A stretch of 64,000 bases of DNA from assembly GCA_046052125.1 (NCBI GenBank), contig JBJOMY010000001.1, positions 726,431 through 790,430 of the forward strand, written 5' to 3'. Source of the stretch: Cyanobacteriota bacterium. GTDB lineage: Bacteria > Cyanobacteriota > Cyanobacteriia > PCC-6307 > Cyanobiaceae. A program made the translations under genes and the position numbers. The notes beneath the pieces were generated by a model that worked only from the letters and a program-made list of their open reading frames with translations, was not told the DNA's origin and ran no database searches. How positions within the stretch are numbered: position 1 is the first letter of the stretch; the number at the start of each line of letters is the position of its first letter. Below are positions 1 through 14,242 of the stretch, in pieces.

Positions 1-208
1 GCAACATGATCAACATCACGTTGCTGAACTGATCCCAGAGGATCTGCCAGTTGCTGCGGCCCGCCGAAAGTTCCAATCGGTTGGGGCCGCCGTCGGCCAG
101 GCGACGCGCGCTCTCAGCGGTCGACAGGCCCTCGGGACTGCAGCTCAGCTGCTTCAGGGCATCGGGAACCGCCAGCGCATGCCAAGGCGTTGTGCGTTGC
201 GGGTCCAA
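1..208 (-). CDS. Cation-transporting P-type ATPase, N-terminal part (runs off window; not in ORF track)
   Basis: Manual minus-strand translation gives ...TTPWHALAVPDALKQLSCSPEGLSTAESARRLADGGPNRLELSAGRSNWQILWDQFSNVMLIML. This fits the Cation_ATPase_N pattern (GLS..EA..RL...GPN..., W.IL..QF). The TTG start at 208 is tentative. Confidence 0.8.
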   Translation of the reverse strand, partial: MDPQRTTPWHALAVPDALKQLSCSPEGLSTAESARRLADGGPNRLELSAGRSNWQILWDQFSNVMLIML

Positions 209-450
209 GGCTCGGTGGGCAAACGGGCGAGACCCTAAGGCAATCGACACGCTGTTTTGGCCGAAAGCGTCTGCTGGAGAGAGCGGACGGGCGGACTTCG
301 GCAGCAGGCGTTAACGATCGGTGCTCCGCTTCTGATCGTGCAACCAGGCGTGGACGCCCAGGCTTGTGAGTGCTTGGCCGGTTGGCCACCGCAGTAACCC
401 AACCCGGCCGAACGGCGCAAGGGTGAAACCACGGGGAATGCTCCCGGCAG

Positions 451-1398
451 ATGCCGCCCGTCCCCATGCCCCCTCGTCACGCCCCCGTTGCCTCCACCGT
501 GAAGACCTGGCTGAACACCAGCAGTGCCCATCGCCCGCTGTGCGAACGCACGGTGATGGAGCTCTCGCGCCGGATTCAGCGTTGGCAACAACACCCCGAT
601 GGCCCAAGCCATGCCCCCAAGCCCGTGCGCCGCAGTGCCCTGCGGGCCCGTGAGCAGTTGGTGCGCCACAACCTGGGCCTGGTGGCCCACACCTGGGGCC
701 GCCACCGCTGCAGCCTGCCCGCCCATGACGACACCACCGCCGATGCGCTGCAGGAAGCGGCGCTGAATCTGGTGCGCGCAGCAGAAAAGTTTGATCCAGC
801 CAAGGGTTACCGGTTCTCCACTTACGCCACCTTCTGGGTGCGGCGGGGGTTCGCGGAGTTTGAACAACGCGCCAAACGCGCGATTCGCTTCCCGGCGGAG
901 AAGGCAGCGGTGGTGCTCAAAGCGCTGCGCCTGAGTCAGCAACACCAGAGCAGCACGGGCGATGAACCGGAACTGGAGTGGTTAGCGGCTCAGCTCAAGT
1001 TCGATGGCAAAGCCATGAACACCAAGCAGCTGGCGGAGTTCATCCGCCAGTGGGATGCCACCCGCACCGGATCCCTCGATGGCGCCGAGGAGGACGGCGA
1101 CGAGAGGGGCACTTCCACCCGACTGGATCAGGCGTCTCTGCAGCATGCGAGTGCTCAGGAGCAAGCATCAGAAGCCGACCCACAACACGCGGCCCTGCCG
1201 CAGTTGATGAACTGCCTGGATGAGCAGGAGTACCGCATGATCCGCAACCGATACCTGCGCCGCCCGCCCCTGAGCCCCTGTCAGTTGCGCCGCTCCATGG
1301 GCGGAATGGAGCCGCACCAGATGCAGCAGTTGGAAGCAACGGCCCTGGGCAAATTGCGCCAAGCGGCCACAGAGCACGACCTCAAGATTCAGGACTGA
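451..1398 (+). CDS. Sigma-70 family RNA polymerase sigma factor (RpoD/SigA-like, divergent)
   Basis: Region 2 motifs REQLVRHNLGLV, LQEAALNLVRAAEKFDPAKGYRFSTYATFWVR. Region 3 is AIRFP. The region 4-like C-terminus ends QLEATALGKLR. Confidence 0.88.
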   Translation: MPPVPMPPRHAPVASTVKTWLNTSSAHRPLCERTVMELSRRIQRWQQHPDGPSHAPKPVRRSALRAREQLVRHNLGLVAHTWGRHRCSLPAHDDTTADALQEAALNLVRAAEKFDPAKGYRFSTYATFWVRRGFAEFEQRAKRAIRFPAEKAAVVLKALRLSQQHQSSTGDEPELEWLAAQLKFDGKAMNTKQLAEFIRQWDATRTGSLDGAEEDGDERGTSTRLDQASLQHASAQEQASEADPQHAALPQLMNCLDEQEYRMIRNRYLRRPPLSPCQLRRSMGGMEPHQMQQLEATALGKLRQAATEHDLKIQD

Positions 1399-1518
1399 TC
1401 CATCCCCAGCCAGCGGTTGGCCGTACAACGCCCGGGGGCCAGTTGTCCTCAGGCGTTTGTGGTATGTGGCGCAGATCTGGGCTGCGTGGCTACAGCGAGG
1501 GGGTTGCCGATTGGCGGC

Positions 1519-2265
1519 ATGACTCCTGGTGAAATCTGCACCACCCTGCTCACCCACAAGCAACGGGTGGCAGAGGCGGCTCACGGGTGGACGGTGGTGA
1601 TTTGCAGCGCCGACAACGAACTCGTTGCCATGGCGGCCCTACTGGTGCCCCACTGCTCTCTGGCGGCGGGTTCCATTGCAGACCTGCTCGCCGGCTTGCC
1701 CGCGGGGAGCGAGCGATTGCTGGTGATCTGCGACGACGCGCTCCCCGATGGCGGTGCGACAGAGCTGATGGAGCAGCTGCGGGCGGCTCAGCCCCAAGCC
1801 ACCTGCCGCTTTCTGGCCTATCTCCCCAGGACCATGGCGCCCGAGAGGCTCGAGCAAATGCTCGCCCATGGCTGCGATGCAATCTGTTGCCGCAGCAGCG
1901 GCGGAACGGGCACGGTGCTCAGCACCTTGGTGCAGGCGCTCCACGGGCAGCAGAGCGTCGATGAAGTCTTTCGCCGGCGTCTGCGGCGCGGGTCTTGCGG
2001 CCATCGCCAGCCGCTGCTCAAGCCCGCTGAACAGGAGTTGGTGCTGCTCGTTGCTCGCGGGCACAAGGCACCGCAAATTGCGGCCCTGCGGCAGAGACGC
2101 TGCGACACCATCCGGCGTCAGCTGAGCGCCATCTACCGCAAGACCGGGGTGCGTGATCAACGCGGGCTGATCGCCTGGGCACTGGCCCATGGCGTGATCA
2201 GGCCACTGGATCTCGACTCAGGAATCCATCAAGCCAGGATCACTGAGATCAGGCAACGGCCTTAG
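1519..2265 (+). CDS. NarL/LuxR-family response regulator-like transcription factor
   Basis: Receiver-like LLVICDDALPDGG and C-terminal LuxR HTH (LKPAEQELVLLVARGHKAPQIA...TIRRQLSAIYRKTGV). ATG at 1519 chosen over TTG at 1417. Confidence 0.8.
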   Translation: MTPGEICTTLLTHKQRVAEAAHGWTVVICSADNELVAMAALLVPHCSLAAGSIADLLAGLPAGSERLLVICDDALPDGGATELMEQLRAAQPQATCRFLAYLPRTMAPERLEQMLAHGCDAICCRSSGGTGTVLSTLVQALHGQQSVDEVFRRRLRRGSCGHRQPLLKPAEQELVLLVARGHKAPQIAALRQRRCDTIRRQLSAIYRKTGVRDQRGLIAWALAHGVIRPLDLDSGIHQARITEIRQRP

Positions 2266-2274
2266 CGTGGAGTC

Positions 2275-2505
2275 ATGGATCTGCTTGATCGCATCACCGT
2301 CGACCCAGCCATCCGGTTTGGGAAGCCCTGCGTGCGGGGGACCCGACTCACGGTTGGTGATGTTCTGGGCACCCTGGCTGCCGGCTGCAGTGAGACCGAG
2401 CTGCTTGAGGACTTCCCACAGCTCAGCCATGAGGATGTGTTGGCTTGCATGGCCTTTGCCGCTGAACGTGAACGCACCTTGATGGTGTCCACGGGGGTGG
2501 GTTGA
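2275..2505 (+). CDS. DUF433-family antitoxin
   Basis: RITVDPAIRFGKPCVRGTRLTVGDVLGTLAAG..E.ELLEDFPQLSHEDVLACMAFAA is the typical DUF433 pattern. Confidence 0.92.
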   Translation: MDLLDRITVDPAIRFGKPCVRGTRLTVGDVLGTLAAGCSETELLEDFPQLSHEDVLACMAFAAERERTLMVSTGVG

Positions 2506-2852
2506 GCCTCAAGCTGCTTCTCGACGAGAACCTTTCTGAGCGTTTGCTTCCGCTGCTCAGCGAAGCGTTTCCAGATTCGAGCCACATCCGCTTACTCGGT
2601 CTCGGCGGTGTCGATGACCGCTCCGTCTGGGAGGAGGCCCGTGCTGGTGGCTATCTGCTGCTGACCAAGGACGACGATTTCCTTGGAATGAGCCTGAGCC
2701 TCGGCTGGCCACCAAAGGTGGTCTGTCTGGCCATTGGCAATGCCTCGAATGCAGCCACAGCCCGGCTGATCCTTTCAAGGCTGGAGGAGATTCGCTACTT
2801 CAACGACCATCCAGAAGCCGGCTTCCTCCTCCTCAAGCCAGCCTCTGGATGA
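2502..2852 (+). CDS. DUF5615-type PIN-like toxin
   Basis: KLLLDENLS, DD..VW..A, LLTKDDDF and PPKVV motifs. Overlaps the antitoxin stop by 4 nt. Confidence 0.9.
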   Translation: MSLKLLLDENLSERLLPLLSEAFPDSSHIRLLGLGGVDDRSVWEEARAGGYLLLTKDDDFLGMSLSLGWPPKVVCLAIGNASNAATARLILSRLEEIRYFNDHPEAGFLLLKPASG

Positions 2853-2885
2853 TCCAGTGTTGAACGCTGATCAGCGTCAATGGTT

Positions 2886-3341
2886 TCAGGCCGCCGCTCC
2901 TGAACGGTGCACTGCTGCTGAAACGGAAACCAACGCGTTCCGCCGCGGCAGATGGCAACAGGCACCGGAGCCAACCAACACATCACTGAGCCGCTTGGCC
3001 GCCAGGAGTGCATCGAGCTCGATGAGTTGCACCGCCTCGCGCTGACGCGGAAGCCAACCGGCGAGCAAGCCGCGATCACCCAGGGGCAGGGGTTTGGGTA
3101 GCTCGAGTCGTTGGCCGAGGAACGGCAACCAGCGCTCAACGCCATCGGCCTCACGCCACGGTTCAAAGCTGGCCACCTCCACCAGCTGCTTGAGCGTGGA
3201 CTCGCCGTAGCTGAGGGACGTCAAATACATCACGTCCTTGAGCTGTTCAGCCTCAAGGGCAAGGGGCATCCAGAAGCCGCGATCGGCGGCGTTCTCGATC
3301 GCATCACGGTGGTGATGGGTGAGCAGAACCTTGGTGGTCAT
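2886..3341 (-). CDS. Hypothetical protein (151 aa)
   Basis: ATG-started ORF with globular composition and host-like codon usage; no family recognised. Confidence 0.6.
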   Translation of the reverse strand: MTTKVLLTHHHRDAIENAADRGFWMPLALEAEQLKDVMYLTSLSYGESTLKQLVEVASFEPWREADGVERWLPFLGQRLELPKPLPLGDRGLLAGWLPRQREAVQLIELDALLAAKRLSDVLVGSGACCHLPRRNALVSVSAAVHRSGAAA

Positions 3342-3395
3342 GGCAGCGAGGAATCACTGCACCGGTTCTGGCTTTGCGGTCCTCAGTGACACCGC

Positions 3396-3455
3396 CCACA
3401 GGTGTGGCATCACCAGCGCCACAGACGTGGGATCCACAGGCCACAGGTGTGGCAT
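3396..3455. repeat. Three phased CCACA-N2-TGTGG palindromes (operator/iteron-like)
   Basis: CCACAGGTGTGG at 3396-3407, CCACAGACGTGG at 3419-3430 and CCACAGGTGTGG at 3441-3452 (spacing 23 and 22 bp). Confidence 0.75.
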
Positions 3456-3607
3456 GGCTGTCTCTGGTGGAACAACACCAGCCAGTCGGGATCGGTGATT
3501 CCACGCACAGCGGGGGGCCAGCGAGCAGCCATTCCGTCAGCCTTTCTTCCAGCCAGATCGCCCCAACCGCAGCCCCAGCACCACCGCAACGGGGGCCCTG
3601 CCCCCCT

Positions 3608-3638
3608 CGGAACCCTATGGGGCGTTGCTTGTTGTTCA
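3608..3638 (+). promoter_or_regulatory. Element motif A copy 1 (CGGAACCCTATGGGG...TTGTTCA)
   Basis: Near-identical copies at 4287 and 9295. Function is inferred only. Confidence 0.55.
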
Positions 3639-3798
3639 TGCCTGTTGAGTTCCGAGGTGCCGCCATTGGCGGGGTGATGGCACTGGTGGTGCAGGCGTGT
3701 GGGCCGACACCGCTCGGGGCGGTGGTGCGTGGGGCGTTGGTGCAGCCCATGCATGCCCGCCAATCCATTGCAGCGCAAGGAGTTCAAGGCAAGGCCAA

Positions 3799-3816
3799 TA
3801 GCCTCCCGCACCTGCA
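3799..3816 (+). repeat. Element motif B copy 1 (TAGCCTCCCGCACCTGCA)
   Basis: Identical 18-mer at 4330-4347. Lies 8 nt upstream of the ATG at 3825. Confidence 0.75.
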
Positions 3817-3824
3817 AACCACGC

Positions 3825-4265
3825 ATGCCCAAACGCTGTCTGCGCCGGCCGATGACCAGTGAGCAGCGGGCGTTTGCCTGCAAGCACCTGGGCCTGGCGC
3901 ATCAACAGGCGCACCGCTTTGCGCGCCGTTGGTCGATGGCCGTCGACGACCTGATTGGCCCCGCCTACGAGGGTCTTTGTAAGGGTGCGATTGGCTTTGA
4001 TCCCACGCTGGGGCATCGCCCCTCCAGCTATCTCGTCCCGAAGGTGAAAGGCGAGTTGCTGCACTACCTGCGCGACACGGGCTTCTCGCTGCGCATCAGC
4101 CACCGGCTGCGGGAGCTGTGGATCAAAGCGCGCCGATACGTCGCCCAGGGCCTCAGCGATCAGCAGATCGCCGATCAACTCCAAGTGCCCCTGGAGCGCT
4201 GGCTGGATTGTCGCCGCGCCTGCGGACAACGGCCGATTCCGCTGCATGAACTCCAGCGCGATTAA
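3825..4265 (+). CDS. Short SigF/SigB-like sigma-70 family protein (regions 2-3, no region 4)
   Basis: HLGLAHQQAHRF...DDLIGPAYEGLCKGAIGFDPTLGHRPSSYLVPKVKGELLHYLRD is group-3 region 2. LRISHRLRE...DQQIADQLQV is region 3. The protein ends after 146 aa. The start could be 3852. Confidence 0.8.
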   Translation: MPKRCLRRPMTSEQRAFACKHLGLAHQQAHRFARRWSMAVDDLIGPAYEGLCKGAIGFDPTLGHRPSSYLVPKVKGELLHYLRDTGFSLRISHRLRELWIKARRYVAQGLSDQQIADQLQVPLERWLDCRRACGQRPIPLHELQRD

Positions 4266-4286
4266 GCGCTGAGCTGCACACCACTC

Positions 4287-4347
4287 CGGAACCCTTTGGG
4301 GTCTCAGCAGCTTGTTCAACCACCCCCAGTAGCCTCCCGCACCTGCA
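4287..4347 (+). promoter_or_regulatory. Motif A copy 2 plus motif B copy 2 upstream of the phosphoesterase gene
   Basis: CGGAACCCTTTGGGG at 4287-4301, TTGTTCA at 4312-4318 and TAGCCTCCCGCACCTGCA at 4330-4347; ATG at 4355. Confidence 0.6.
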
Positions 4348-4354
4348 TCTCTCT

Positions 4355-5527
4355 ATGGGTTCAGCCAAACACCGCCACCAACCAGCCCGTCATCTCCCTG
4401 GACGGGGAGCACAACCGGCCAGCAACACTGATCAAGACCGCGAACTGCTGCAGTTCAACGTGCGCCTGGCCAAGGCACGTCAGGCCCAGGCCGACACCAA
4501 CCGGATTGAGCGCAAGGCCTTCCGCGAACACGCCCGCATCGAGAACGCCGTCACCGCCTACACCCGCGAGCTGTGCTCGCTTCTGGATGAACGGGGCTTT
4601 ACGCAAGGCGTGACGCTCTCCCGCATCCCGGACGGCGGGGATGCAGTGCTGATCGTGCAACTGAGCGATCTGCACTTCAACGAGCGGGTTGAACTGCCCT
4701 CCAACCGCTACGACTTCACCGTGGCCGCGCAGCGTCTGGCCAAGCTCGCCCAACGCGTCAAGCAACTGGGCCAGAGCTATGGCGCCCGCAAGGTGGTGGT
4801 GGCCTGCCTGGGGGATTTCCTCAACAGCGACCGGCGCCTCGATGAGCTGCTCTCCAACAGCACCAACCGTTCCAGAGCAACCCTGCTTGCCGTCGACATC
4901 CTGCGGGCGTTTCTGCTCGATCTACGCGAGCAGTTCGAGCTCGAGGTCTATGGCATCACCGGCAATGAAAGCCGCGTGAACAAAGAGCTGGGCTGGAGCG
5001 ATGAGCTCGCCACCGACAGCTACGACCTGATGATCTACGAGATCCTCAAGCGCGGCTTTGCCGGCACAGAAGGGATCAACTTCTGCGGCTTCCGGGCCAA
5101 TGAGCTCTTGTTTGAGGTGATGGGCCGCACCTTCCTCTGCCTGCACGGCCACCAGATCGGCGCGAACGTGCAGAAATCGGTGCAAGAGATCACCGGTAAG
5201 TACGCCGCCCAAGGCATCACGGTGGACTACACCCTGTTCGGCCACCTACACGCCAGCGCCATCGGCGACTACCACGCCCGCAATGCCTCGCTGGTGGGCA
5301 GCAACGCCTACTCAGAAGCAGGGCTGAACTTCTGCAGCAAGGCGGCGCAGAACATCCACATCGTGTCTGGCTCCAAGGGCACGGGCGCTATCGATGGCGT
5401 GAAGGTTGACCTCCAGGACATCAGCGGGATCGAGCCCTACCCCTTTGCCGCCGAATGGGAGGCCTACTGCCCCAAGAGCGAGCGCAAGCTCCACACCCCC
5501 TCTGTCGTTTACCAGGTTGTTGTCTGA
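4355..5527 (+). CDS. Calcineurin-like metallophosphoesterase (Mre11/SbcD/DP1-like, phage-type) with N-terminal coiled coil
   Basis: All five motifs are present: SDLH, LGD, GNE, LHGH and FGHLH. The N-terminal segment is helical (RLAKARQAQADTNRIERKAFREHARIENAV). Confidence 0.82.
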   Translation: MGSAKHRHQPARHLPGRGAQPASNTDQDRELLQFNVRLAKARQAQADTNRIERKAFREHARIENAVTAYTRELCSLLDERGFTQGVTLSRIPDGGDAVLIVQLSDLHFNERVELPSNRYDFTVAAQRLAKLAQRVKQLGQSYGARKVVVACLGDFLNSDRRLDELLSNSTNRSRATLLAVDILRAFLLDLREQFELEVYGITGNESRVNKELGWSDELATDSYDLMIYEILKRGFAGTEGINFCGFRANELLFEVMGRTFLCLHGHQIGANVQKSVQEITGKYAAQGITVDYTLFGHLHASAIGDYHARNASLVGSNAYSEAGLNFCSKAAQNIHIVSGSKGTGAIDGVKVDLQDISGIEPYPFAAEWEAYCPKSERKLHTPSVVYQVVV

Positions 5528-5907
5528 TGACTGTTTCCACTCCTTCCCGCACCTGCGCCTGCGCTAGGGGCGCCAGCGGCAACACGGCGCTTGAGCTGCA
5601 GAGCGCGCTGCTCCAGGCGATCACTGGGCTCACGCAACTGGTGAGTCAGCTCAGCCAACAGTTCCCGATCACCCAGCCGACTGCTCCTGCAGCAGAGCCC
5701 TGGATGGAGGAGCGCCCCAGCCAGGCAACCAAGCCGACATGCGTGCCCAACCTCTCAACCCTCTGGGATGAGCTGTCGGTGGTGGAACTGCGCTCGCTCT
5801 TGCGCAGCTATCCGATTGATCGCTCCTCCCTGCCAGCCCCGATCGAACTGCTGCGCCGCAGCGAGCTCATCGAAGCCCTCAACCAAATCCAAGCCCTCGG
5901 TGCTTAA
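5527..5907 (+). CDS. Hypothetical protein with C-terminal Rho_N/HeH-like helix pair
   Basis: TGATG coupling to the upstream gene. C-terminus DELSVVELRSLLRSY...LLRRSELIEAL resembles helix-extension-helix nucleic-acid-binding motifs. Confidence 0.55.
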   Translation: MTVSTPSRTCACARGASGNTALELQSALLQAITGLTQLVSQLSQQFPITQPTAPAAEPWMEERPSQATKPTCVPNLSTLWDELSVVELRSLLRSYPIDRSSLPAPIELLRRSELIEALNQIQALGA

Positions 5908-5960
5908 GGGGCGAAAGGCCCCTCGCGAATCAGACCCGTTCACCCATTCCACACACGCCT

Positions 5961-6437
5961 ATGACCACAACCCTCACCACCGCCAATCCCGCCGCTCTCG
6001 GCGAACCCATCCCCGGATCACCGGAAGCGCTGTTGCTCTTGGCCAACGCGGGAATACTGCCCGCCAGTGCCGGCGCCGACGATCCCCGCTTCTCAGCCGA
6101 CGCCATCACCACCTGCGTCACCCGACTGCTCGAGGTGAAACAGCAGAAGGAACTCCTGGCCAATGAACAGAAGGAACTGAACGAACAGCTGCGCCTGGCG
6201 CACTTACGCGGTGACCTGCTCACCCTGTTGCCAGCCGGCAAGGACGGCAACGGCTATCAGATCACCCCGGATCTCGTGCTCAACCGCCGCCCCGGCCGCA
6301 AGCAGTGGAGCTACTCGATCGACTGCAAAGAGATCGAATGCCAGCTCAAGGCACGCCAGAGCTATGAGCAGCAGAGCGGCCTCGCCAGCTACAGCCTCGG
6401 TGCAGCGTTCTGGGAGGTGCGGGCGAGCAAGGGCTGA
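5961..6437 (+). CDS. Hypothetical phage-like protein (coiled coil plus basic C-terminus)
   Basis: Clean ATG ORF with high GC3, followed by a terminator; no family securely recognised. Confidence 0.7.
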   Translation: MTTTLTTANPAALGEPIPGSPEALLLLANAGILPASAGADDPRFSADAITTCVTRLLEVKQQKELLANEQKELNEQLRLAHLRGDLLTLLPAGKDGNGYQITPDLVLNRRPGRKQWSYSIDCKEIECQLKARQSYEQQSGLASYSLGAAFWEVRASKG

Positions 6438-6463
6438 GTCCGCACATCACGGCGCAAGTGATC

Positions 6464-6495
6464 AAAAGCCCTGGGTTACGGCCCGGGGCTTTTTG
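6464..6495 (+). terminator. Rho-independent (probably bidirectional) terminator
   Basis: AAAAGCCCTGGGT-TACG-GCCCGGGGCTTTTT. Confidence 0.8.
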
Positions 6496-7010
6496 GCATC
6501 CAGTGTTCAGCTCCAATCAAAAACCCCCGAGCAGCGCCCGAGGGTCATTGGCTAATCACGTCGAATGAAGCGTTTGGTCTGGATCGAAGCTGCTGGCGTT
6601 GGCGCCTGGGGCCGAACGTTCCAGATGTGGGTTGGTTGGTTCTCCTGGGGCACCTATGGCGGTGCAAACGGAGTGTCGACGGTTCAGACGCACCATTCAG
6701 TGTCCGAACTGACGACCCGCCCACGGTTGGGTGAAGACTGTTGGAGCAGGGGCCTGCAGTCAGCTTGCTTCTGGCGGGTAGCGGGGTGGCGTGTCGTCCA
6801 TCTGGGCGCCTCCTTGGTTGATGGACACACCATCGCGCCGCCGCTGACGCCAGGCAATCGGGATTTACACGCATTGCCTTTGCAGCCAAGCGGGAGCAGG
6901 GTGGGTTGTTTGGTGCGTTCAGCGCAGGCAGCCGGATTTCGGGCTACACCCGTTGCCCCTCGCTCGCCACCCTGGAGGTTCATCTCTAGGTGCAGAAACC
7001 ACCCGGTTCC

Positions 7011-8099
7011 TCAGCTGGAGATGCGGAAGCCCTGCTTGAGCCATAGCGACACATACACCAAGGACACCAACACCGGCACCTCGATCAACGGGCCAATCAC
7101 ACCGGCCAGGGCCTGTTGGGAACTGATTCCCCAGATGCTGATACAGACAGCAATCGCCAGCTCAAAGTTATTGCCAGCTGCGGTGAAAGCCAAAGCGGAT
7201 GTGCGCGTGTAATCCAAGCCGCTTCTCTTGCCTAGGGCAAATGCGGTGCTCCACATGATCACGAAGTAGAGAAGCAGAGGCAAGGCCACCCGCAAAACCT
7301 GGCCTGGATTCGCAGTGATCGCCTTGCCCTGGAGAGCAAACATCACCACGATAGTGAAGAGCAAGCCGTATAAAGCGAAGGGAGCAATCCTGGGAATGAA
7401 TCGCTCTTCGTACCAGCGGATGCCTTTGGAACGTACGCCAATCTGACGGGTCAGGAACCCAGCCACCAGAGGAATCCCAAGAAAGACCAGTACGGCTTTT
7501 GCAATCTCCCAGAAGGAGAAGCTCAGAACTTGGCTTTCAAGCCCAAGCCAGCCAGGAAGCACCTGCAGATAGAAGGTGCCCAACAAGGCATAAATAAGGA
7601 CCTGCAGAATGGAATTAATCGCAACCAGCACTGCAGCCACTTCACGGTTTCCCTTGGCCAGATCAATCCAGATCAGCACCATCGCAATGCAAGGCGCAAT
7701 ACCAATCAGGATCAATCCAGTCCGAAAGGCAGGTTGATCTGGAAGGAACAACCAAGCCAAAGCGAACATCAACAGTGGCCCCAACCCCCAAACCAACCCA
7801 AGGGCCAGCTTCAGCAGGCGGGGATCACGGGCAGCGTGGCCCAGTTCGCCGTAGCGCACTTTGGCCAGCACTGGATACATCATCAACAACAAACCGATGG
7901 CGATCGGCAAAGAGGTGTGATCCACCTGCACCGCAGTGAGCGCAGCCTGTATGCCAGGCACCAGCCGTCCGAGCAGGAGACCACTGGCCATCGCCAACAG
8001 GATCCAGAGCGGTAGGAGCCGATCGAGCACAGGCAGCGAGGCCAACACAGTGGCCTCTTTGGACGACGGCTGCGCTGAGTGGAGAGCGTCGTCTCTCAT
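7011..8099 (-). CDS. acr3: Acr3-family arsenite efflux transporter
   Basis: LDRLLPLWILLAM, GLLLMMYPVLAKV, GIAPCIAMVLIW, AAGNNFELAIAV and GPLIEVPVL motifs. The ATG at 8099 overlaps the upstream stop (ATGA). Confidence 0.93.
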   Translation of the reverse strand: MRDDALHSAQPSSKEATVLASLPVLDRLLPLWILLAMASGLLLGRLVPGIQAALTAVQVDHTSLPIAIGLLLMMYPVLAKVRYGELGHAARDPRLLKLALGLVWGLGPLLMFALAWLFLPDQPAFRTGLILIGIAPCIAMVLIWIDLAKGNREVAAVLVAINSILQVLIYALLGTFYLQVLPGWLGLESQVLSFSFWEIAKAVLVFLGIPLVAGFLTRQIGVRSKGIRWYEERFIPRIAPFALYGLLFTIVVMFALQGKAITANPGQVLRVALPLLLYFVIMWSTAFALGKRSGLDYTRTSALAFTAAGNNFELAIAVCISIWGISSQQALAGVIGPLIEVPVLVSLVYVSLWLKQGFRISS

Positions 8100-8809
8100 G
8101 GCATGTGGGGCGCTGCGATTTGTAGTCGGGCCTCCGTTCCGTCGGGGCCTAGGCAGCAAGGCAGATGCCCTGTCTTCACCCAGATCGTGCAACCCGGTTC
8201 ACTGCAAGGTCGATGCACACTGCCCGGTGGATTGCGCAGCCAGCTGCCAGCGGGATAGGTGCCGTGCTCGTCCTGGAACACACCAGACAACACATAAATC
8301 TCCTCGCCGCTTGGATGGCTGTGGGGCTGAAACACCGTGCCAGGCGCCCAGCGCACCAGCGCCACGTGCTCCGAGCCGTAGCCGTGTAGGGGCATGACCT
8401 CGAGCCCATTCACAAGCCCAGGAACCCAAACACCGGAGCTGGTATCGATCACCAGCCGCTGCTGATCTCCCGGGTGCATCTGATACAGCTTCACCAGAAT
8501 CGTGCAGCCAGCCTTGCTGAACGGGGTATGGCTCGATCCCACCGGATTACGCAGGTAGCTGCCGGCGGGGTAGTCCCCGTGCTCATCCGAGAACGTGCCC
8601 TCGAGAACAAGGATTTCTTCTCCACCGGGATGGCCATGGGGCTCGAAGTGACTGCCGGGGGCGTAGCGCACGATTGAGGTGGCACGGGCCACCTCTTCCC
8701 CGCGGCGATCCAGAAGGCGGCGTTCCACGCCAGCCATTGGTGAGGGCTGCCAGGCCAAAGCATGGGTGTCGAGCACCACGCGTTCGCTGAGGTCGGCATG
8801 CAGGTCCAT
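8096..8809 (-). CDS. ChrR-like double cupin protein (anti-ECF-sigma factor-like)
   Basis: MDLHADLSERVVLDT..., ARATSIVRYAPGS.F..H.H.GGEEILVLEGTFSDEHGDYPAGSYLRNP, with the motif repeated in the C-terminal half. Confidence 0.88.
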   Translation of the reverse strand: MDLHADLSERVVLDTHALAWQPSPMAGVERRLLDRRGEEVARATSIVRYAPGSHFEPHGHPGGEEILVLEGTFSDEHGDYPAGSYLRNPVGSSHTPFSKAGCTILVKLYQMHPGDQQRLVIDTSSGVWVPGLVNGLEVMPLHGYGSEHVALVRWAPGTVFQPHSHPSGEEIYVLSGVFQDEHGTYPAGSWLRNPPGSVHRPCSEPGCTIWVKTGHLPCCLGPDGTEARLQIAAPHMP

Positions 8810-8823
8810 TCAGCTGATTCTGA

Positions 8824-9102
8824 TCAGCTCACTTCCGGCGCCCAGCCCCGTTGGCGGACCATGTCATCCGTCCAGCCCTGACAGCGCCTGACCAGATGCT
8901 CACCCTGGGCAATCAGTCCGTGGTGAAGCTGGCAGGTGAGCAAAGGGATGCAGTCAGCACCGGGGTGGTACCTGAACCAATGGCAGGTCATGCAGACCTT
9001 GCGGCTGCGACTGGGACGCAGCACGTCCTCATCCAGATAGGGCCAGGCTTCGCAGTCGCTGCCTGCAGCCACTGAGGTGGCCCGGATTCGAGAAGCAGTC
9101 AT
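8824..9102 (-). CDS. Small Cys/His-rich picocyanobacterial protein (CMTC...CQLH...C, C-terminal GWAPE)
   Basis: 92-aa ORF from ATG 9102 with an AGGGG SD. The CxxC plus C/H residues suggest metal binding. Confidence 0.7.
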   Translation of the reverse strand: MTASRIRATSVAAGSDCEAWPYLDEDVLRPSRSRKVCMTCHWFRYHPGADCIPLLTCQLHHGLIAQGEHLVRRCQGWTDDMVRQRGWAPEVS

Positions 9103-9115
9103 CAACCCCTCTATG

Positions 9116-9130
9116 CATACACTTGTACTA
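9116..9130. promoter_or_regulatory. Candidate LexA (SOS) box
   Basis: CATACACTTGTACTA has a perfect TGTACT half and a degenerate other half relative to the cyanobacterial AGTAC-N4-GTACT consensus. It lies about 14 nt upstream of the 9102 start. Confidence 0.5.
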
Positions 9131-9191
9131 GCAGGGATTGGCTGGGTTGGCGCGGGTCGTGCTGATCGGTTCCGGATTCCTCCAACAAAGG

Positions 9192-9223
9192 AGCCCCGGG
9201 CCATGGGCGCCCGGGGCTTTTTG
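9192..9223 (+). terminator. Rho-independent terminator
   Basis: AGCCCCGGGC-N7-GCCCGGGGCT followed by TTTT. Confidence 0.75.
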
Positions 9224-9294
9224 AGCCAGTGGGTTGTTGGTCTCCCACCGCCTCTTGGTCATGGCTCAGGTCTGCGGCGGAGCGCAAGGCCTGT

Positions 9295-9309
9295 CGGAAC
9301 TCTTTGGGG
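9295..9309 (+). promoter_or_regulatory. Motif A copy 3 (CGGAACTCTTTGGGG)
   Basis: Matches the copies at 3608 and 4287; followed by TTGTTCAAC at 9326. Confidence 0.55.
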
Positions 9310-9325
9310 CCTTTCCCCATGTCCT

Positions 9326-9649
9326 TTGTTCAACTCTTTTCCGCGCTTCTTCTCCTGGCTGCGCTCGTTGCTGCAGCGACCTCAGACCTGCTCCAGCAGC
9401 GAGCTCGGGCCCTTTGAGCTCGACCACGCCTTTGCTGCCTTTGAGCAGGGTGATTGGTTGGCAGAACTGGACCTCCTGCAACTGGGTGTTGCCCTGCAGC
9501 GCGGCGCCATCGCCCGCGGCGGCTACGACGGCCGCTCCTTTGACCTGATGGTCGCCATCGCCGATGTCCTGCAAAGCGATCACGGCTGGAGCTTTGAGCA
9601 GTCCGATGCCTGGCTCGAGCGCATGGGGCTCTGGGAGGAGGAGTTCTGA
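9326..9649 (+). CDS. Hypothetical acidic protein (~107 aa, TTG start)
   Basis: The frame from TTG 9326 (FNSFPRFFSWLRSLL...LERMGLWEEEF) has strong GC3 bias. The start is uncertain. Confidence 0.6.
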   Translation: MFNSFPRFFSWLRSLLQRPQTCSSSELGPFELDHAFAAFEQGDWLAELDLLQLGVALQRGAIARGGYDGRSFDLMVAIADVLQSDHGWSFEQSDAWLERMGLWEEEF

Positions 9650-9719
9650 GGGTTCAGGCCACCGCCGGTAGCCTCCCTCGCGGCCAAGTCCGGTCGCAGC
9701 GTCGTCTGCCTGGCTGCCG

Positions 9720-9917
9720 ATGAGTGAACACCTCTGGCTGACCACTGCCGAGCTCTGCTCCCATCTGGCTATCAGCCGCTCCACGCTGTTTGCCATTCGC
9801 CGCTCGGGCCTGCTCAAGGACGGGCGGCATCTGGTGGCCAAGAACCCAACCAGCGCTCGCTCGCACCTGCTCTGGCACCGTCAGCGCTGTGAGTTGGCCC
9901 TCGGGAGGATCAGCTGA
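9720..9917 (+). CDS. Excisionase/AlpA-MerR-like HTH protein 1
   Basis: WLTTAELCSHLAISRSTL...RR.G.LK.GRH is a small basic winged-HTH next to the integrase. Confidence 0.78.
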   Translation: MSEHLWLTTAELCSHLAISRSTLFAIRRSGLLKDGRHLVAKNPTSARSHLLWHRQRCELALGRIS

Positions 9918-10135
9918 TGGCTTCCATCGGCAGCTCCAACAGCGCCTGGGTCACCACCAGCGAGCTCTGCGCTGCCCTTGCCATCAGCCGCTCCAAGCTC
10001 TGCCGTCTGCAACAGCGCAAGGTGTTCCGCCAAGGGCTGCACTGGGTGCGCAAAAACCCAACCGCGGCACGTTCCGATCAGCTCTGGAGCCTGGAGGCGT
10101 GTCGTTCACTGCTTGAGAATCAACACCGTTTCTAG
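9917..10135 (+). CDS. Excisionase/AlpA-MerR-like HTH protein 2 (paralog of 9720-9917)
   Basis: WVTTSELCAALAISRSKL...GLHWVRKNPTAARS aligns with protein 1; TGATG coupling. Confidence 0.78.
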   Translation: MASIGSSNSAWVTTSELCAALAISRSKLCRLQQRKVFRQGLHWVRKNPTAARSDQLWSLEACRSLLENQHRF

Positions 10136-10165
10136 AGGCTCCTCCTCCGCCACCAACAAGCCATC

Positions 10166-10192
10166 AAAAAAAGGGGGCCTCAGGCCCCCTTT
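10166..10192 (-). terminator. Terminator between convergent xis-like genes and integrase
   Basis: AAAAAAA-GGGGGCC-TCA-GGCCCCC-TTT, which gives a U7 tail on the minus strand. Confidence 0.85.
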
Positions 10193-10216
10193 CTGCTGTC
10201 CGCTATCCGTTCAGGG

Positions 10217-11584
10217 CTAGGCACCCGCCCCGGGTTCAGGGAGCATCCGACGCGCCAGGGAGGCCTTGGTTTGCTCCTCCGTGATCTCGCTCAGGTACGT
10301 GCGCCGGTGTACCTCCGGGCTATGGCCCATCACCGCTGCCACATCCGCGTAGTTCCAGGTTGTGGTTTCCCGAGCCCGAATCGCGTAGGCGTGGCGCAGG
10401 TCATAAGGCACGCAGCGCTCCTTGCGTTTCTGCGCTTTCTTCTTGCCCTGGGCTGGCGCTGTTTCTACCCAGGCATACAGCTTGGTCTTGAGTTCAAACT
10501 CCGCCTTGGCATCGGAGCTGCGCAACTTGTGGCAGCACACCGCGCCCAGGCGTTCGTTGTTATCGCAGCGCTTCACGAGGTCACGCTCGGGATCAAAGGG
10601 CTGGCCCTCCTCATTCACGAACTTGGGCACGTAGCGGCTGCGCAGCTGCTCGAGCCGTTGCTCCCCATTCACACCGCCCAGCTGGTAGCGCTCCACCCAT
10701 TCGGCAGGCAGCGGTAGTGCGACGCGGAAACCAGTCTTCGTGACCTTGATGTGGCGGGCCGCCACGCTGATGCTCACCATCCCCTGCTCATCGGGGAGTT
10801 CAGCGATATGCCACACCTCATGGGGCCTGAGCCCATAGGTGGCCACCATCGCGAACACCCACCCCCAGAGCGGGTCCTCGTCCATCACCTGATCCAGCCA
10901 CTCCTGAATTGCTGCGGTGCTCGGAATACGGCGCCTGGATTCACCCGCCGAAAGGAGCGCCACCTTCTTCTTATTGACCATTCCCTTGAGCTCCTCGCTC
11001 AGGCTCTCCGGTGCAATCGCCCCGTAGCCGGCCCGCCGGAGCAACGACACCACCTCCCGCTTCTGGCGGAACCCCTGGCGGTGGGTGGCCATCGGCAGCA
11101 GCGTGGCCGTTGCGTCCTCCAGCCGTGCCTTGAGGCTTTCGCTGGTATGCAACGCAAAGCGGCGCACATCCTCCTCAGTAGCCGGGCGATCCGCCGGCAG
11201 CAGACAGAAGTAGCCCTTGCCTTTGAACGGACCCACCAGGTTCATGTTCACCCCCTGGGCTCGCTGGAACGCCACCACGGCGGCGCAGATGGCAGGCCAG
11301 CAAGGGTTGTTTGCGTTGGCGGCGTCGAGGTCTTCCTGGCCGTCGGGGAGAACAGCGGGCTTGCCACTGCGGGTCGCCTCGATCAGCAGGTCCTGGAGGT
11401 TTTCGATCGCCTCTGGGTCAGCGGCTGCATAGCCCTTGATGGTGTGCTCGCGGGTTTTGCCACCCTCGCCGAGCTGGTACACCGTGATCCATGGGCTGCG
11501 GCGGTGCTCCCGCAGCCGGTATCGGGCGCCGAAGGCGCGCAGCACGGCATTACAGCGCTGCATGGGGCTCTGAATCGTGGCCAT
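10217..11584 (-). CDS. Tyrosine recombinase / phage-type integrase
   Basis: Catalytic motifs YGLRPHE (R), TKTG (K), YDLRHAYA (xxLRH) and MGHSPEVHRRTY (H, Y). Adjacent to the tRNA 3' end. Confidence 0.92.
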   Translation of the reverse strand: MATIQSPMQRCNAVLRAFGARYRLREHRRSPWITVYQLGEGGKTREHTIKGYAAADPEAIENLQDLLIEATRSGKPAVLPDGQEDLDAANANNPCWPAICAAVVAFQRAQGVNMNLVGPFKGKGYFCLLPADRPATEEDVRRFALHTSESLKARLEDATATLLPMATHRQGFRQKREVVSLLRRAGYGAIAPESLSEELKGMVNKKKVALLSAGESRRRIPSTAAIQEWLDQVMDEDPLWGWVFAMVATYGLRPHEVWHIAELPDEQGMVSISVAARHIKVTKTGFRVALPLPAEWVERYQLGGVNGEQRLEQLRSRYVPKFVNEEGQPFDPERDLVKRCDNNERLGAVCCHKLRSSDAKAEFELKTKLYAWVETAPAQGKKKAQKRKERCVPYDLRHAYAIRARETTTWNYADVAAVMGHSPEVHRRTYLSEITEEQTKASLARRMLPEPGAGA

Positions 11585-11817
11585 GGGGAACGCATCTCTG
11601 GATGGAGTGTTCCCACCGATCCGGACCCAGAACCCCAACCAATCTCACGCGGTGAGACGAGCCGGATTCCTTGGGACTTGTCCCAAGGAAATGACACAAC
11701 TACGGTTTTCGGCGATCTCCCCCGGACTCATTCCGCCCGGGGGAAACCGCCTTCTGAAACCCTGAGAACCCTTGCGTTGCAGGGTAAAACCCTTGCAGTC
11801 CAAGCGATCTCAAAACA

Positions 11818-11889
11818 TGGGTCGTCTGAGATTCGAACTCAGGACCAATCGGTTAAAAGCCGAGTGCTCTACCGCTGAGCTAACGACCC
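11818..11889 (-). tRNA. trnK: tRNA-Lys (anticodon UUU)
   Basis: Reverse complement GGGTCGTTAGCTCAGCGGTAGAGCACTCGGCTTTTAACCGATTGGTCCTGAGTTCGAATCTCAGACGACCCA folds as a full cloverleaf with a TTT anticodon and TTCGAAT T-loop. Confidence 0.97.
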
Positions 11890-12005
11890 GCCCGGTACCT
11901 GGAAATCCAAGCGCGGGGGTGGCCCTTGCGGGCACCCAGTGAACGTATCACCCAGAGGGTCCCGCCTCCAACCGCGCCGAGAATGGCTGGAGCGCACCCC
12001 CAGCC

Positions 12006-12533
12006 ATGCCTGTTACGCCCTGGCCCCAGCCTTCCGTGCACCCGGATGCCTGGGTGGCTGATTCAGCGGTGTTGATCGGCGACGTGCGCCTGGCGGCCGG
12101 GGCGAGTGTCTGGCCCACTGCAGTGGCCCGCGGCGATGTGTGCAGCATCGAGATCGGCGAGGGCAGCAACGTGCAAGACGGCGCAGTGCTCCACGGCGAC
12201 CCGGGCCAGCCGGTGCGGATCGGGGCCGACGTGACCATCGGACACCGGGCCGTGGTGCATGGCGCCACCCTGGAAGACGGCTGCCTGATCGGGATCGGGG
12301 CCGTGGTGCTCAACGGCGTCACCGTGGGGGCCGGAGCGCTGGTGGCCGCAGGAGCGGTGGTGACCAAAAACGTGGCGCCTCGCGCCCTGGTGATGGGGGC
12401 CCCGGCCCAGCTCAAGCGTGAGCTCAGCCCTGAGCAAGCCGAGGAGCAGCGGCAACACGCCCGCCGCTACCGCCAGCTGGCCATGGCCCACGCCGGCCGC
12501 TCGAGCGATCTGGGCTTCCACGCAGCCAGCTGA
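12006..12533 (+). CDS. Gamma carbonic anhydrase family protein
   Basis: Hexapeptide repeats, [12 protein letters not shown] and [10 protein letters not shown]. Confidence 0.92.
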
Positions 12534-12625
12534 ATTGCTGCGAATTCAGTCGATTGCCGGCCCTAGCCGCTGCGCTTGGCGCGTGGCCCGTAGGATCAGC
12601 ACACGCTTCGACACATTTCCCAGCC

Positions 12626-12748
12626 ATGGATGCACGGCTTCTGCTTGTAGTCACCCCGGTTCTTCTGGCCGCCGGCTGGGCCGTGTTCAACATCGGCCGC
12701 GCTGCCGTGGGCCAGCTGCAGCTGATGCTCAAGCGCGCCAACGGCTGA
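12626..12748 (+). CDS. psbY: Photosystem II protein Y
   Basis: MDARLLLVVTPVLLAAGWAVFNIGRAAVGQLQ. Confidence 0.92.
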   Translation: MDARLLLVVTPVLLAAGWAVFNIGRAAVGQLQLMLKRANG

Positions 12749-12773
12749 TCGGCTTCGAGCCCGTTTGAATCCC

Positions 12774-12802
12774 AGAGCCTCCGCTGCGGCGGGGGCTTTG
12801 TT
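12774..12802 (+). terminator. Rho-independent terminator after psbY
   Basis: AGAGCCTCCGC-TGCG-GCGGGGGCTTTGTT. Confidence 0.7.
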
Positions 12803-12862
12803 GTGTCGAGCCACCAAGGGCGCCCCGTAGGGTGAAACCTCGGAGCAGATCGGGGCCCCACG

Positions 12863-14242
12863 GTGCAGACACACAGCCCAACCACCCCAAACGAGGTGCT
12901 GGTGATCGGTGCCGGCCTGGCGGGCACTGAGGCGGCCTGGCAGATCGCCGCAGCCGGCGTACCGGTGCGCCTGGTGGAGATGCGCCCCGTGCGCCGATCA
13001 CCCGCCCACCACAGCAGTGAATTTGCCGAGCTGGTGTGCAGTAACAGCTTCGGGGCGCTAAGCAGCGACCGCGCCGCGGGCCTGTTGCAGGAGGAGCTGC
13101 GCCGCCTCGGTTCCCTGGTGATCGGCACCGCCGACCGCCACGCCGTACCCGCCGGTGGCGCCCTGGCGGTGGACCGCGGCCGCTACAGCGCCGCCCTCAC
13201 CGAAGCGCTCGAGCAGCACCCGCTGGTGACGGTGGAGCGCCGCGAGCAGACCGAGCTGCCTGGCCCCGAGCAGATCACGGTGCTGGCCACCGGTCCGCTC
13301 ACCAGTGAGCCACTGGCCGATCAGCTGCGCGCCTTCACCGGCCGGGCCGATTGCCACTTCTTTGATGCCGCAAGCCCGATCGTGGAGGGCGAGAGCATCG
13401 ATCTCTCGGTGGCCTTCCGCGCCTCCCGCTACGACAAGGGCGACGCCGACTACATCAACTGCCCGATGAACAAGGAGCAGTTCCTCGCCTTCCGCGAGGC
13501 GTTGCTGGCGGCCGAGCAGGCCGAGCTCAAGGATTTCGAAAAGGAGAACGCCACCTTCTTCGAGGGCTGCCTGCCAATTGAGGAGCTCGCCCGCCGCGGC
13601 GAAGACACGATGCGCTACGGCCCGCTCAAGCCGATCGGCCTCTGGGATCCCCGCTGGGGCGATGTGAACGACCGCGACGTGCGCCGCGCCAACCGCGCCT
13701 ATGCCGTGGTGCAACTGCGCCAGGAAGACAAGGACGGCCGTCTCTGGAACCTGGTGGGCTTCCAGACCAACCTCAAATGGGGGGAGCAGAAGCGCGTGCT
13801 GCGGATGATCCCAGGGCTGGAGAACGCCGAGTTCGTGCGCTTCGGGGTGATGCACCGCAACACCTTCCTGGAGGCCCCGCAGCTGCTCGATCCCACCCTG
13901 CAGTTCCGCCAGAGGCCCTCCCTGCTCGCCGCCGGCCAGATCACCGGTACCGAGGGCTACGCGGCGGCGGTGGCTGGCGGCTGGCTGGCTGGCACCAACG
14001 CCGCCAGGCTGGCCCTCGGCCATGAACCGCTGCAGCTGCCCGCCACCTCAATGATCGGCGCTCTCACCCACTTCATCGCCGAAGCCCCGAGCGAGAAGTT
14101 TCAGCCGATGCCGCCGAACTTCGGCCTTTTGCCCGAACTGCCCGAGCGGATCCGCGACAAGCGCCGCCGCTACGGGGCTTACCGCGATCGGGCCTTGGAG
14201 GATCTGGCGCCCTTCTGCGCAGCACTGGCGGTCGCCGCCTGA
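12863..14242 (+). CDS. trmFO: tRNA (uracil-5-)-methyltransferase TrmFO (Gid)
   Basis: [40 protein letters not shown] and FQPMPPNFG. Confidence 0.96.

Follow-up and report, generated by a model that had tools for sequence, protein, structure and literature searches.

Prophages and satellites have been thought rare in picocyanobacteria, and the route by which these organisms acquire their flexible genes is an open question. True phage satellites usually possess terS, a capsid-remodelling gene and a master repressor. Tycheposons, as far as the available text of their description goes, have a size like that of phage-inducible chromosomal islands (PICIs), 10-20 kb, with an integration module of ~1 kb, a replication module of 2-4 kb and cargo reaching at least 10 kb (Hackl et al., 10.1101/2020.12.28.424599). 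According to the accessible part of another report, the cyanosiphovirus P-SS2 has two sigma factors, a helicase, a primase, an integrase and a tRNA-like attachment site (att) (PMC2784084), and 'relic prophages' with P-SS2-like genes occur in a marine Synechococcus (Sullivan et al. 2009, PMC2784084). Here we describe an integrative island, termed element A, at a tRNA-Lys gene of a member of the Cyanobiaceae (assembly GCA_046052125.1; 2.64 Mb, 64% GC, 10 contigs; G000 in our survey). The stretch analysed, called the window, comprises 64,000 nt (contig JBJOMY010000001.1, here C1, positions 726431-790430). Because the genome encodes phycobilisome proteins (8 matches to PF00502) and DNA near-identical to the window is held mainly by freshwater and lake metagenomes, the host is regarded as a freshwater picocyanobacterium.

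Positions 451-11889 of the window make up 11.4 kb, the integrase-proximal (right-hand) quarter, of an island of 46.5 kb that is integrated site-specifically. On C1, the tRNA-Lys 3' end is present in three direct copies of one orientation, and the rest of the genome has none: the tRNA itself (72/72 nt), an inner copy with one mismatch (44/45 nt identical) and an outer, exact copy (44/44 nt). Because the far att copy of the island lies 46.5 kb from the tRNA, outside the window, element A is assigned to C1 691773-738247. A first-pass annotation of the window had proposed that an element bringing its own sigma factors and a repeated cis motif is integrated at tRNA-Lys, and had suggested looking upstream for a second tRNA 3' end; the inner 45-nt copy is that second end, and the proposal is borne out. 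GC content is 0.56-0.66 over window positions 1-12000, with the minimum of 0.56 at the ACR3/cupin cargo (7011-8809), and 0.67-0.72 past the tRNA.

From its far end, element A encodes MNT/HepT and HicB; an endolysin (lysozyme plus a C39-like domain; PHROG E 4e-67); AbrB and an SNase nuclease; a type III restriction-modification (RM) pair (PADLOC REase_III E 0, MTase_III 5e-214) with DUF4391, an SNF2/HKD helicase and an HNH protein; Nif11, Dps and Crp; Rad52 (E 5e-40), a Gp157/Gam-like protein and a SLOG protein; a DUF429 protein; a DnaG-type primase (PHROG_6444 E 9e-101), a DnaB-type helicase (PHROG_19 E 3e-37) and a 355-amino-acid (aa) protein; and a P-type ATPase, after which the genes of the window follow up to the tRNA. 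Counted from the first base of the window, the start of the 355-aa gene is 3.7 kb upstream, that of dnaB 4.8 kb upstream, and the end of the primase gene 8.2 kb upstream. The 355-aa protein, for which the Atlas gave a lead to phage HTH_36/replication proteins, is possibly a replication initiator. Between the blocks of backbone genes stands variable cargo: the type III RM, SNF2/HKD, HNH, MNT/HepT, HicB, DUF433/DUF5615, ACR3, P-type ATPase, Dps and Crp genes. A second type III RM/DUF4391/SNF2-HKD cluster, whose proteins are 54-86% identical to those of element A, is situated at C1 290912-299849. Several conserved open reading frames (ORFs) of element A have no assigned function. None of 44 element A ORFs matched head, tail or packaging proteins in the PHROG scan, which left small ORFs outside; the major capsid protein (MCP), portal and terL of the siphovirus S-CBS2 gave no tblastn match inside element A; and no relaxase was found in it. 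The combination of capsid, portal, terminase and tail genes inside one att-bounded unit that marks a complete prophage is thus not what element A contains. The earlier report of no capsid, terminase, relaxase or replication gene within 451-11889 holds for that interval, but the replication module lies upstream of it. The possibility then raised, that structural phage genes upstream would make this an ordinary prophage, has not materialized inside element A; such genes are present in a separately bounded neighbour, element B, described below.

The non-virion genes of element A resemble those of one group of cyanosiphoviruses. The phosphoesterase is 50-53% identical to proteins of the Synechococcus siphoviruses S-CBS2 and S-CRES1-3, and the helicase matched 8 records in a phage collection, all of them P-SS2, S-CRES or S-CBS2. 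The corresponding set in S-CBS2 consists of the endolysin gp054, the helicase gp056 with an adjacent 359-aa gene, the sigma factors gp061 and gp077, the primase gp078, gp079 and gp080. In tblastn searches of the present genome, matches were obtained for gp054 (45% identity), gp056 (24%), gp061 (32%), gp077 (34%, the relative of the short sigma factor), gp078 (33%) and gp079 (51%). These similarities identify the pair of sigma factors, the gp079-type phosphoesterase, the helicase, the primase and the endolysin as the early module of S-CBS2/P-SS2-type cyanosiphoviruses, and indicate that element A derives from such a virus and keeps its non-virion functions. The gene combination, which had at first been taken as novel, is therefore the one known from these phages.

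Element A belongs to a family. Among the 301 family genomes surveyed (designated G000, G168, G236 and so on), eight related loci were compared with it, and in 6/8 (G168, G236, G264, G185, G202 and G209) the backbone is syntenic, with protein identities of 33-94%. Each of the six syntenic loci sits at tRNA-Lys or at an att copy, and the order kept is integrase, both xis genes, small ORFs, phosphoesterase, short sigma, 151-aa ORF, LuxR-type gene, long sigma, 355-aa gene, helicase and primase. The co-occurrence that the first-pass annotation had asked about, that of the proteins encoded at 3825, 4355, 5961, 9720 and 10217, is found, in synteny, in these six. G218 and G282 have the integration end alone in common with element A. 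Three att-bounded relatives measure 71.2 kb (G236), 80.7 kb (G264) and 92.3 kb (G185), all with an endolysin at the far end; structural PHROGs were matched by none of 98 unlabelled ORFs (75 aa or longer) from G236 and G264 and by none of 48 from G185, ORFs crossing locus joins being skipped. The G185 element also contains psbA (photosystem II D1; L044:16004-17365; PHROG_182, E 6e-182). The phosphoesterase, 81-94% identical in the related loci and the best backbone marker, occurs in 16/301 genomes, often in 2-3 copies, and in 11/17 genomes of the genus besides this one, and the integrase was found in 47/301. Contigs from metagenome runs were compared over window positions 1-13500 (X3, X5 and X9, DNA; X20, an RNA library), and their summed depth is far higher on backbone bins than on the cargo bins 1351-2700 and 7201-8550; backbone segments are thus far better represented than cargo segments in three lake metagenomes. 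Short X20 contigs with 90-95% likeness lie on the sigma, toxin-antitoxin, phosphoesterase, xis and integrase genes, although the library may hold DNA. A joint between 3729 and 9653 (side of 25 nt) lies in similar motif contexts and was dismissed as probably a repeat artefact.

Three paralogous A-type copies exist in the present genome, at tRNA-Lys, tRNA-Met and tRNA-Pro (~46, 36 and 33 kb). The copy at tRNA-Met(cat) occupies C1 ~146-182 kb and has an integrase 29% identical to that of element A; its far boundary is an estimate, since no att repeat was found for it at E 0.01. The copy at tRNA-Pro lies at C3 14.6-47.9 kb. It forms part of a tandem array at tRNA-Pro(tgg), C3 14535-113301, with att copies at 14535-14591 and 47918-47960. 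Neither copy has the room, or enough unassigned sequence, for a hidden virion module. Across the three copies, 13/13 backbone genes tested have ratios of nonsynonymous to synonymous substitution (dN/dS) of 0.06-0.43 (dS 0.3-1.2), and a single stop codon occurs in one of the copies; the pattern points to purifying selection on the backbone. Literature searches gave no description of such elements, and this family of capsid-less, siphophage-derived islands is apparently undescribed.

The family also shares a cis motif, which the first-pass annotation had noticed as repeated leader motifs. Its core, TAGCCTCCC, occurs at 9 sites in the 2.64-Mb genome, whereas 33 would be expected, and 8/9 fall in the three A-type elements, ahead of the same operons. 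Within element A, the core has a GCC-purine-purine prefix at four sites. The motif recurs at orthologous places in 7 other genomes: the placement is the same in G236, G264, G185, G168 and G202, and in G218 and G282 it stands only upstream of xis. The TAGCCT box fits a -10 element, and the part upstream of it is not conserved. We infer that the motif is a promoter read by one of the sigma factors of the element; if so, excision, replication and the second sigma factor would be joined in one regulon.

A conserved non-coding block of ~400 nt accompanies the backbone. By nhmmer and DNA search, four full copies were found in the genome, three of them in A-type elements (the others besides that of element A are at C1 151438-151863, C3 43796-44219 and C4 331525-331916), with diverged copies in both B-type elements; the block is present in 130/301 genomes of the family, mostly in islands. 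Substitutions in it have no codon periodicity (0.21, 0.195 and 0.232). On the minus strand, a strong Shine-Dalgarno (SD) sequence precedes an ORF of 7-14 codons that starts MxDTPP and has synonymous changes between copies. Invariant stretches run up to 36 columns, one stem has four pairs changed on both sides in 6/12 copies (alifold), and there is an intrinsic (rho-independent) terminator. Rfam found only tRNA in window 1-13000 and nothing at E 1 in 6350-7100, where the block lies, and the folding energy is not significant (z -1.4 for the minus strand, -0.9 for the plus strand). A single literature search returned no relevant description of the block, which is not proof that it is unpublished.

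The integrase of element A abuts the tRNA 3' end, as first reported, and its position and fold agree with that reading, but at E cut-offs of 0.01 and 0.001 the 473-aa ORF found no match among Pfam, PHROG and NCBIfam models, and against PDB sequences it gave none beyond a chance nanobody match (E 1.1). R253, K283, R397, H421 and Y430 are invariant in a 13-sequence alignment, down to 35% identity. We take these to be the catalytic residues, with Tyr at the first His position, by eye comparison with the lambda Int motifs. An AlphaFold model built from the same alignment (pLDDT 70.6) had only tyrosine recombinases (lambda Int, Tn1549 Int, Cre) as top Foldseek matches, with probabilities of 0.93-0.99 and E values of only 5e-3 to 3e-2. 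VIA-align superposed it on Tn1549 Int, lambda Int and XerH with Z 7.1-7.6 over 229-243 residues (root-mean-square deviation 3.9-4.5 A), where Z below 8 is moderate support. On predicted fold and conserved residues only, the protein is accepted as a divergent subfamily of tyrosine integrases.

Element A is a member of a tandem array at tRNA-Lys, arranged as a remnant, then element B, then element A. Element B (C1 619392-691727, 72 kb) is att-bounded and lies left of the inner att copy. It encodes an integrase, xis, VRR-NUC, an SNF2-type helicase, a 922-aa primase, Rad52, Gam, SSB, RecT and an exonuclease, together with terminase, sigma, portal, scaffold and major capsid genes, but neither a tail nor a tape-measure gene could be recognised. 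It also contains a complete class-1 DISARM system (DrmD, DrmMI, DrmA, DrmB, DrmC). On C3, too, a B-like element follows the A-like one. Family-wide, most B-type large-terminase homologues have 1-3 in-frame TGA codons in otherwise full-length matches, which may reflect decay, recoding or a split gene. In the decayed A-type remnant left of the outermost tRNA-Lys att, a 34-nt fragment (C1 615881-615914) is 97% identical to the tRNA-Pro att, which hints at exchange between the arrays. A clean empty tRNA-Lys site was sought in three same-genus genomes that lack the integrase (G125, G149 and G098), and all of them hold other island DNA there.

Taken together, these findings suggest that element A is probably a still-functional, capsid-less, replication-competent island derived from a siphophage and functionally akin to tycheposons and satellites. 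In the proposed mechanism, some signal would switch on the 315-aa sigma factor, and RNA polymerase would then read TAGCCTCCC-type promoters before xis, the replication operon, the short sigma gene and the phosphoesterase gene. The island would be excised by Int and Xis at the 45-nt att and then replicated, and its transfer to other cells would require helper siphovirus particles or another vehicle. While integrated, it would serve its host as a defence and metal-resistance island. In a bolder form, which we offer as speculation and consider distinctly doubtful, the A-type elements of freshwater picocyanobacteria would make up a new class of satellites, large ones (33-92 kb) that depend on P-SS2/S-CBS2-type cyanosiphoviruses. 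These would have shed all their virion genes and would employ a two-sigma cascade of their own, by which excision and replication, via TAGCCTCCC, would answer to a trigger, for instance infection by a helper; they would ride in 72-108-kb helper capsids with defence genes, metal resistance and, in one relative, psbA, and the 400-nt block would be a further regulatory RNA.

The main alternative is an inert element A: the domesticated remnant of an ordinary S-CBS2-like prophage, stripped of virion genes and kept only for its cargo and a few co-opted genes, with no excision, replication or transfer. We regard this as possible though rather unlikely, and the observations that count against an active island belong here. 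No structural or packaging genes were found, nor were terS, a capsid-remodelling gene or a recognisable master repressor among the element A ORFs scanned. The locus also holds decayed members of the family, both here and in relatives: a 356-bp integrase-end stub (85% identical) and other A-type fragments are situated left of the outer att copy, and sigma remnants ~70% identical stand beside tRNA-Lys, with the integrase absent, in G125 and G149. The tRNA-Pro copy, too, has no integrase between its att copies, which again suggests decay, and the purifying selection seen between copies could date from a time when the ancestral elements were still complete phages. In IMG/VR, the best of 98 phosphoesterase relatives is 57% identical, compared with 76-97% among cellular copies, and a scan with the phosphoesterase alone as query gave one weak locus (33% over 48 residues); packaging into particles is unsupported, because no A-type relative occurs among viral contigs. 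The surveys have bounds of their own, as ORFs were called with an in-house GC3 heuristic and the scans skipped those below 45-75 aa or spanning locus joins, including four large ORFs in G236 and G264, and metagenome contigs conceal rare junctions, strand and level. The accessible texts give precedents in the 'relic prophages' of marine Synechococcus (PMC2784084) and in another strain's island, for which a similar verdict was left open (10.1101/325100). On the other hand, the same capsid-less architecture, with both ends kept, recurs at three tRNAs here and in at least six other genomes. Purifying selection is seen on the integrase, the xis pair, the whole replication operon and the two sigma genes, all of them intact, and the att repeats are 44/45 and 44/44 nt identical. 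The cis motif is kept across genomes before xis and the replication genes, which would be unexpected if these genes were idle.

The repeated tandem arrangement of A-type and B-type elements, in the C1 tRNA-Lys and C3 tRNA-Pro arrays, raises the question of whether A and B are two halves of one functional temperate phage, or whether B is a resident helper with A as its dedicated satellite, hence the shared att. Homology links their integrases (36% identity, E 4e-71), which act at the same 45-nt att, and A and B together cover most S-CBS2 functions. Yet A and B each have att copies of their own as boundaries, as well as a separate integrase and xis; B is also equipped with a primase, a helicase, recombination genes and a sigma factor, and it has no recognised tail or tape-measure gene. 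Moreover, the terL of the B-like element on C3 has two in-frame TGA codons. B-type terminase is present in 63/301 genomes, yet only in 6/16 with the A-type phosphoesterase; it was not found at E 1e-20 in the other 10, three of them single-contig. On these counts, A does not appear to depend on a resident B, and we consider either form of coupling very improbable. As for the extent originally proposed, an ~11-kb element (451-11889) forming a wholly new class without replication genes, the absence of replication, capsid and relaxase genes in that interval fits it, but no att copy lies near 451, the nearest being 46.5 kb from the tRNA, backbone synteny crosses the window start into helicase and primase in every related locus, and the gene set is that of known cyanosiphoviruses. 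The att positions and the synteny already refute that version. What survives of the original interpretation is the tRNA-Lys integrative element with its cis motif and no virion or relaxase genes found; the ~11-kb unit and the new combination do not.

The features of element A in and next to the window are listed in Table 1.

Table 1. Features of element A; positions refer to the window unless a contig is named
Feature	Position	Strand	Basis and remarks
P-type cation ATPase, 935 aa, N-terminal end	2-250	-	Pfam E1-E2_ATPase, Cation_ATPase_C and others; gene continues upstream of window
Sigma-70 family protein, 315 aa, group-2-like, regions 2 to 4 (backbone)	451-1398	+	Pfam Sigma70_r2 E 3.7e-10
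282-aa protein with C-terminal LuxR/sigma-region-4-like helix-turn-helix (HTH) (backbone)	1417-2265	+	PHROG_3282 'sigma factor' E 7e-08, residues 197-264
DUF433/DUF5615 pair, putative toxin-antitoxin (variable cargo)	2275-2852	+	DUF5615 E 1.2e-26; PHROG_11928 E 2.3e-13
Conserved 151-aa backbone protein, function not assigned	2886-3341	-	Orthologues 43-92% identical in 6 loci
Motif copy 1	3795-3816, core at 3799	+	9 nt upstream of short sigma ATG 3825
Short sigma, 146 aa from ATG 3825, region 2 and part of region 3, without region 4	3825-4265	+	Pfam Sigma70_r2
Motif copy 2	4326-4347, core at 4330	+	8 nt upstream of phosphoesterase ATG 4355
Phage-type metallophosphoesterase/exonuclease, 390 aa, S-CBS2 gp079 counterpart	4355-5527	+	PHROG_284 E 1e-52
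Backbone ORF, 150 aa, function not assigned	5455-5907	+	Orthologues in 6 loci; dN/dS 0.26-0.43
Backbone ORF, 158 aa, function not assigned	5961-6437	+	Orthologues in 6 loci; dN/dS 0.06-0.09
Conserved non-coding block, ~400 nt	6516-6925	-	SD and mini-ORF (MxDTPP...), invariant core, covarying stem, intrinsic terminator
ACR3 arsenite efflux transporter (cargo)	7011-8192	-	TIGR00832 E 9.7e-124, above cut-off
ChrR-like double-cupin protein (cargo)	8096-8809	-	Cupin_7 E 1.8e-70
Conserved Cys/His-rich protein, 126 aa	8824-9204	-	Third-position substitutions fix the frame; orthologues 66-80% identical
Small acidic conserved protein upstream of xis, start codon uncertain	~9367-9649	+	Substitution periodicity fixes the frame
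Motif copy 3	9659-9677, core at 9669	+	42 nt upstream of xis ATG 9720
Tandem paralogous excisionase-like HTH genes, 65 and 72 aa	9720-9917; 9917-10135	+	Orthologues 73-96% and 50-83% identical in all 8 loci
Divergent tyrosine recombinase (integrase A), 473-aa ORF	10217-11638	-	Abuts tRNA 3' end; likely start ATG 11584
att core, 3' 45 nt of tRNA-Lys	11818-11862	-	Repeated at C1 691728-691772 (inner) and 619348-619391 (outer)
tRNA-Lys(ttt)	11818-11889	-	ARAGORN and Rfam
Motif copy 4	C1 722779	- (opposite strand)	Before the 355-aa/helicase/primase operon

The genes that the first-pass annotation listed are all real, although its coordinates are not those of the element, and several of its assignments could be made more precise. 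It had described one full-length and one truncated sigma-70 protein. Both score above the Pfam cut-off of 24 bits for Sigma70_r2 (39.9 for the long protein and 30.5 for the short one). The 315-aa sigma factor also matches PHROG_351 (E 2.7e-29), aligns with RpoD-type models through region 4 and with TIGR02997 over residues 42-303, the latter below its cut-off, and has orthologues 51-90% identical in 6 loci (dN/dS 0.16-0.20). The supposedly truncated protein is a conserved short form: its ORF (3699-4265) matches Sigma70_r2 at E 3.1e-07 and PHROG_36098 at E 4e-31, its orthologues are ~145 aa long and its dN/dS is 0.09-0.11. As it stops before region 4, it has the features of the sigma-70 family only in part. 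The LuxR regulator, putative toxin-antitoxin pair, metallophosphoesterase and two xis-like genes likewise exist. The 282-aa protein with the LuxR-type HTH has weak NCBIfam LuxR-type matches and orthologues 33-58% identical; the DUF433/DUF5615 pair is present in G168 alone among the 8 related loci; and the phosphoesterase has a Pfam Metallophos match only below the cut-off. The two xis-like genes are paralogues, with 48% identity at the protein level (56 aa, E 2e-17) and 76% at the nucleotide level (54 nt), the first with weak HTH_17 and PHROG excisionase matches (E ~1e-3).

The 151-aa backbone protein has no family match in Pfam, PHROG or NCBIfam, and its dN/dS is 0.11-0.12; for the 158-aa ORF, the Atlas gave a lead to phage hypothetical proteins. 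The P-type ATPase is cargo inserted between the replication operon and the sigma gene, and the gap that it occupies is filled differently in the paralogous copies. None of the 8 related loci contains ACR3. In the interval 8780-9720, the codon periodicity of substitutions identifies the Cys/His-rich and the small acidic protein as the real genes, and paralogues of the latter adjoin the ends of the other two A-type elements. The same periodicity ruled out the ORFs 8851-9075 (+), 9266-9841 (-) and 6565-7212 (+), the last of which is probably not a gene. Between the converging second xis and integrase genes, a GC-rich hairpin with A-run and T-run flanks (10165-10200) is probably a two-way terminator.

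The present genome thus holds three intact, ordered capsid-less derivatives of siphophages at three tRNAs, with relatives in at least 15 other genomes of the family. If active, such elements would spread defence systems and resistance genes among lake picocyanobacteria, and the tycheposon idea would extend from 10-20-kb elements to phage-sized ones. The conserved motif before the xis, replication and sigma genes provides a directly testable regulon for a phage-type sigma factor. Even if these islands are inert, their odd gene combinations would still be the early module of known cyanosiphoviruses.

With S-CBS2, S-CRES1-3 and P-SS2, element A shares, at 24-53% identity, a long and a short sigma factor, a DnaG-type primase, a lysozyme-type endolysin and a SLOG/DprA-like protein. 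Also in common are a DnaB-type helicase with an adjacent ~355-aa gene on the opposite strand, and a gp079-type phosphoesterase followed by a small ORF. Unlike these phages, element A lacks genes for a terminase, portal, capsid, tail, ribonucleotide reductase and thymidylate synthase, and it is integrated and att-bounded, with roughly half of it cellular-type cargo. Like PICIs and other phage satellites, it is integrated, has no full virion module and is co-resident with elements bearing capsid genes, and it seems to be competent for replication. On the other hand, it is far larger than the usual 10-20 kb, and no terS, capsid-size-redirection gene or recognisable master repressor was found.

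Judged by the published description available to us, element A has the general make-up of a tycheposon: a tyrosine integrase adjoining a tRNA, part of which is repeated at the far end; an excisionase and a primase/helicase module; niche-related cargo; an arrangement in tandem arrays at one tRNA; and neither capsid nor conjugation genes (10.1101/2020.12.28.424599). Its 46.5 kb (33-92 kb in relatives) lies outside the 10-20 kb given there for tycheposons. It also differs from them in its siphoviral-type sigma factors, recombination genes and endolysin, and tRNA-Lys is mentioned nowhere in the available text of the tycheposon paper (10.1101/2020.12.28.424599). As portrayed in the accessible portions of two reports, the 'relic prophages' of marine Synechococcus are likewise tRNA-bounded islands, 40-70 kb long and without a complete virion module, which hold scattered siphovirus-like genes such as those for a sigma factor, integrase, lysozyme and RAD52-family protein (PMC2784084; Flores-Uribe et al., 10.1101/325100). 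They are described there as degraded, transposase-rich single cases (PMC2784084; 10.1101/325100), whereas the backbone of element A is intact and ordered, bears the signature of purifying selection, recurs at three tRNAs and in other genomes, and has a dedicated cis motif.

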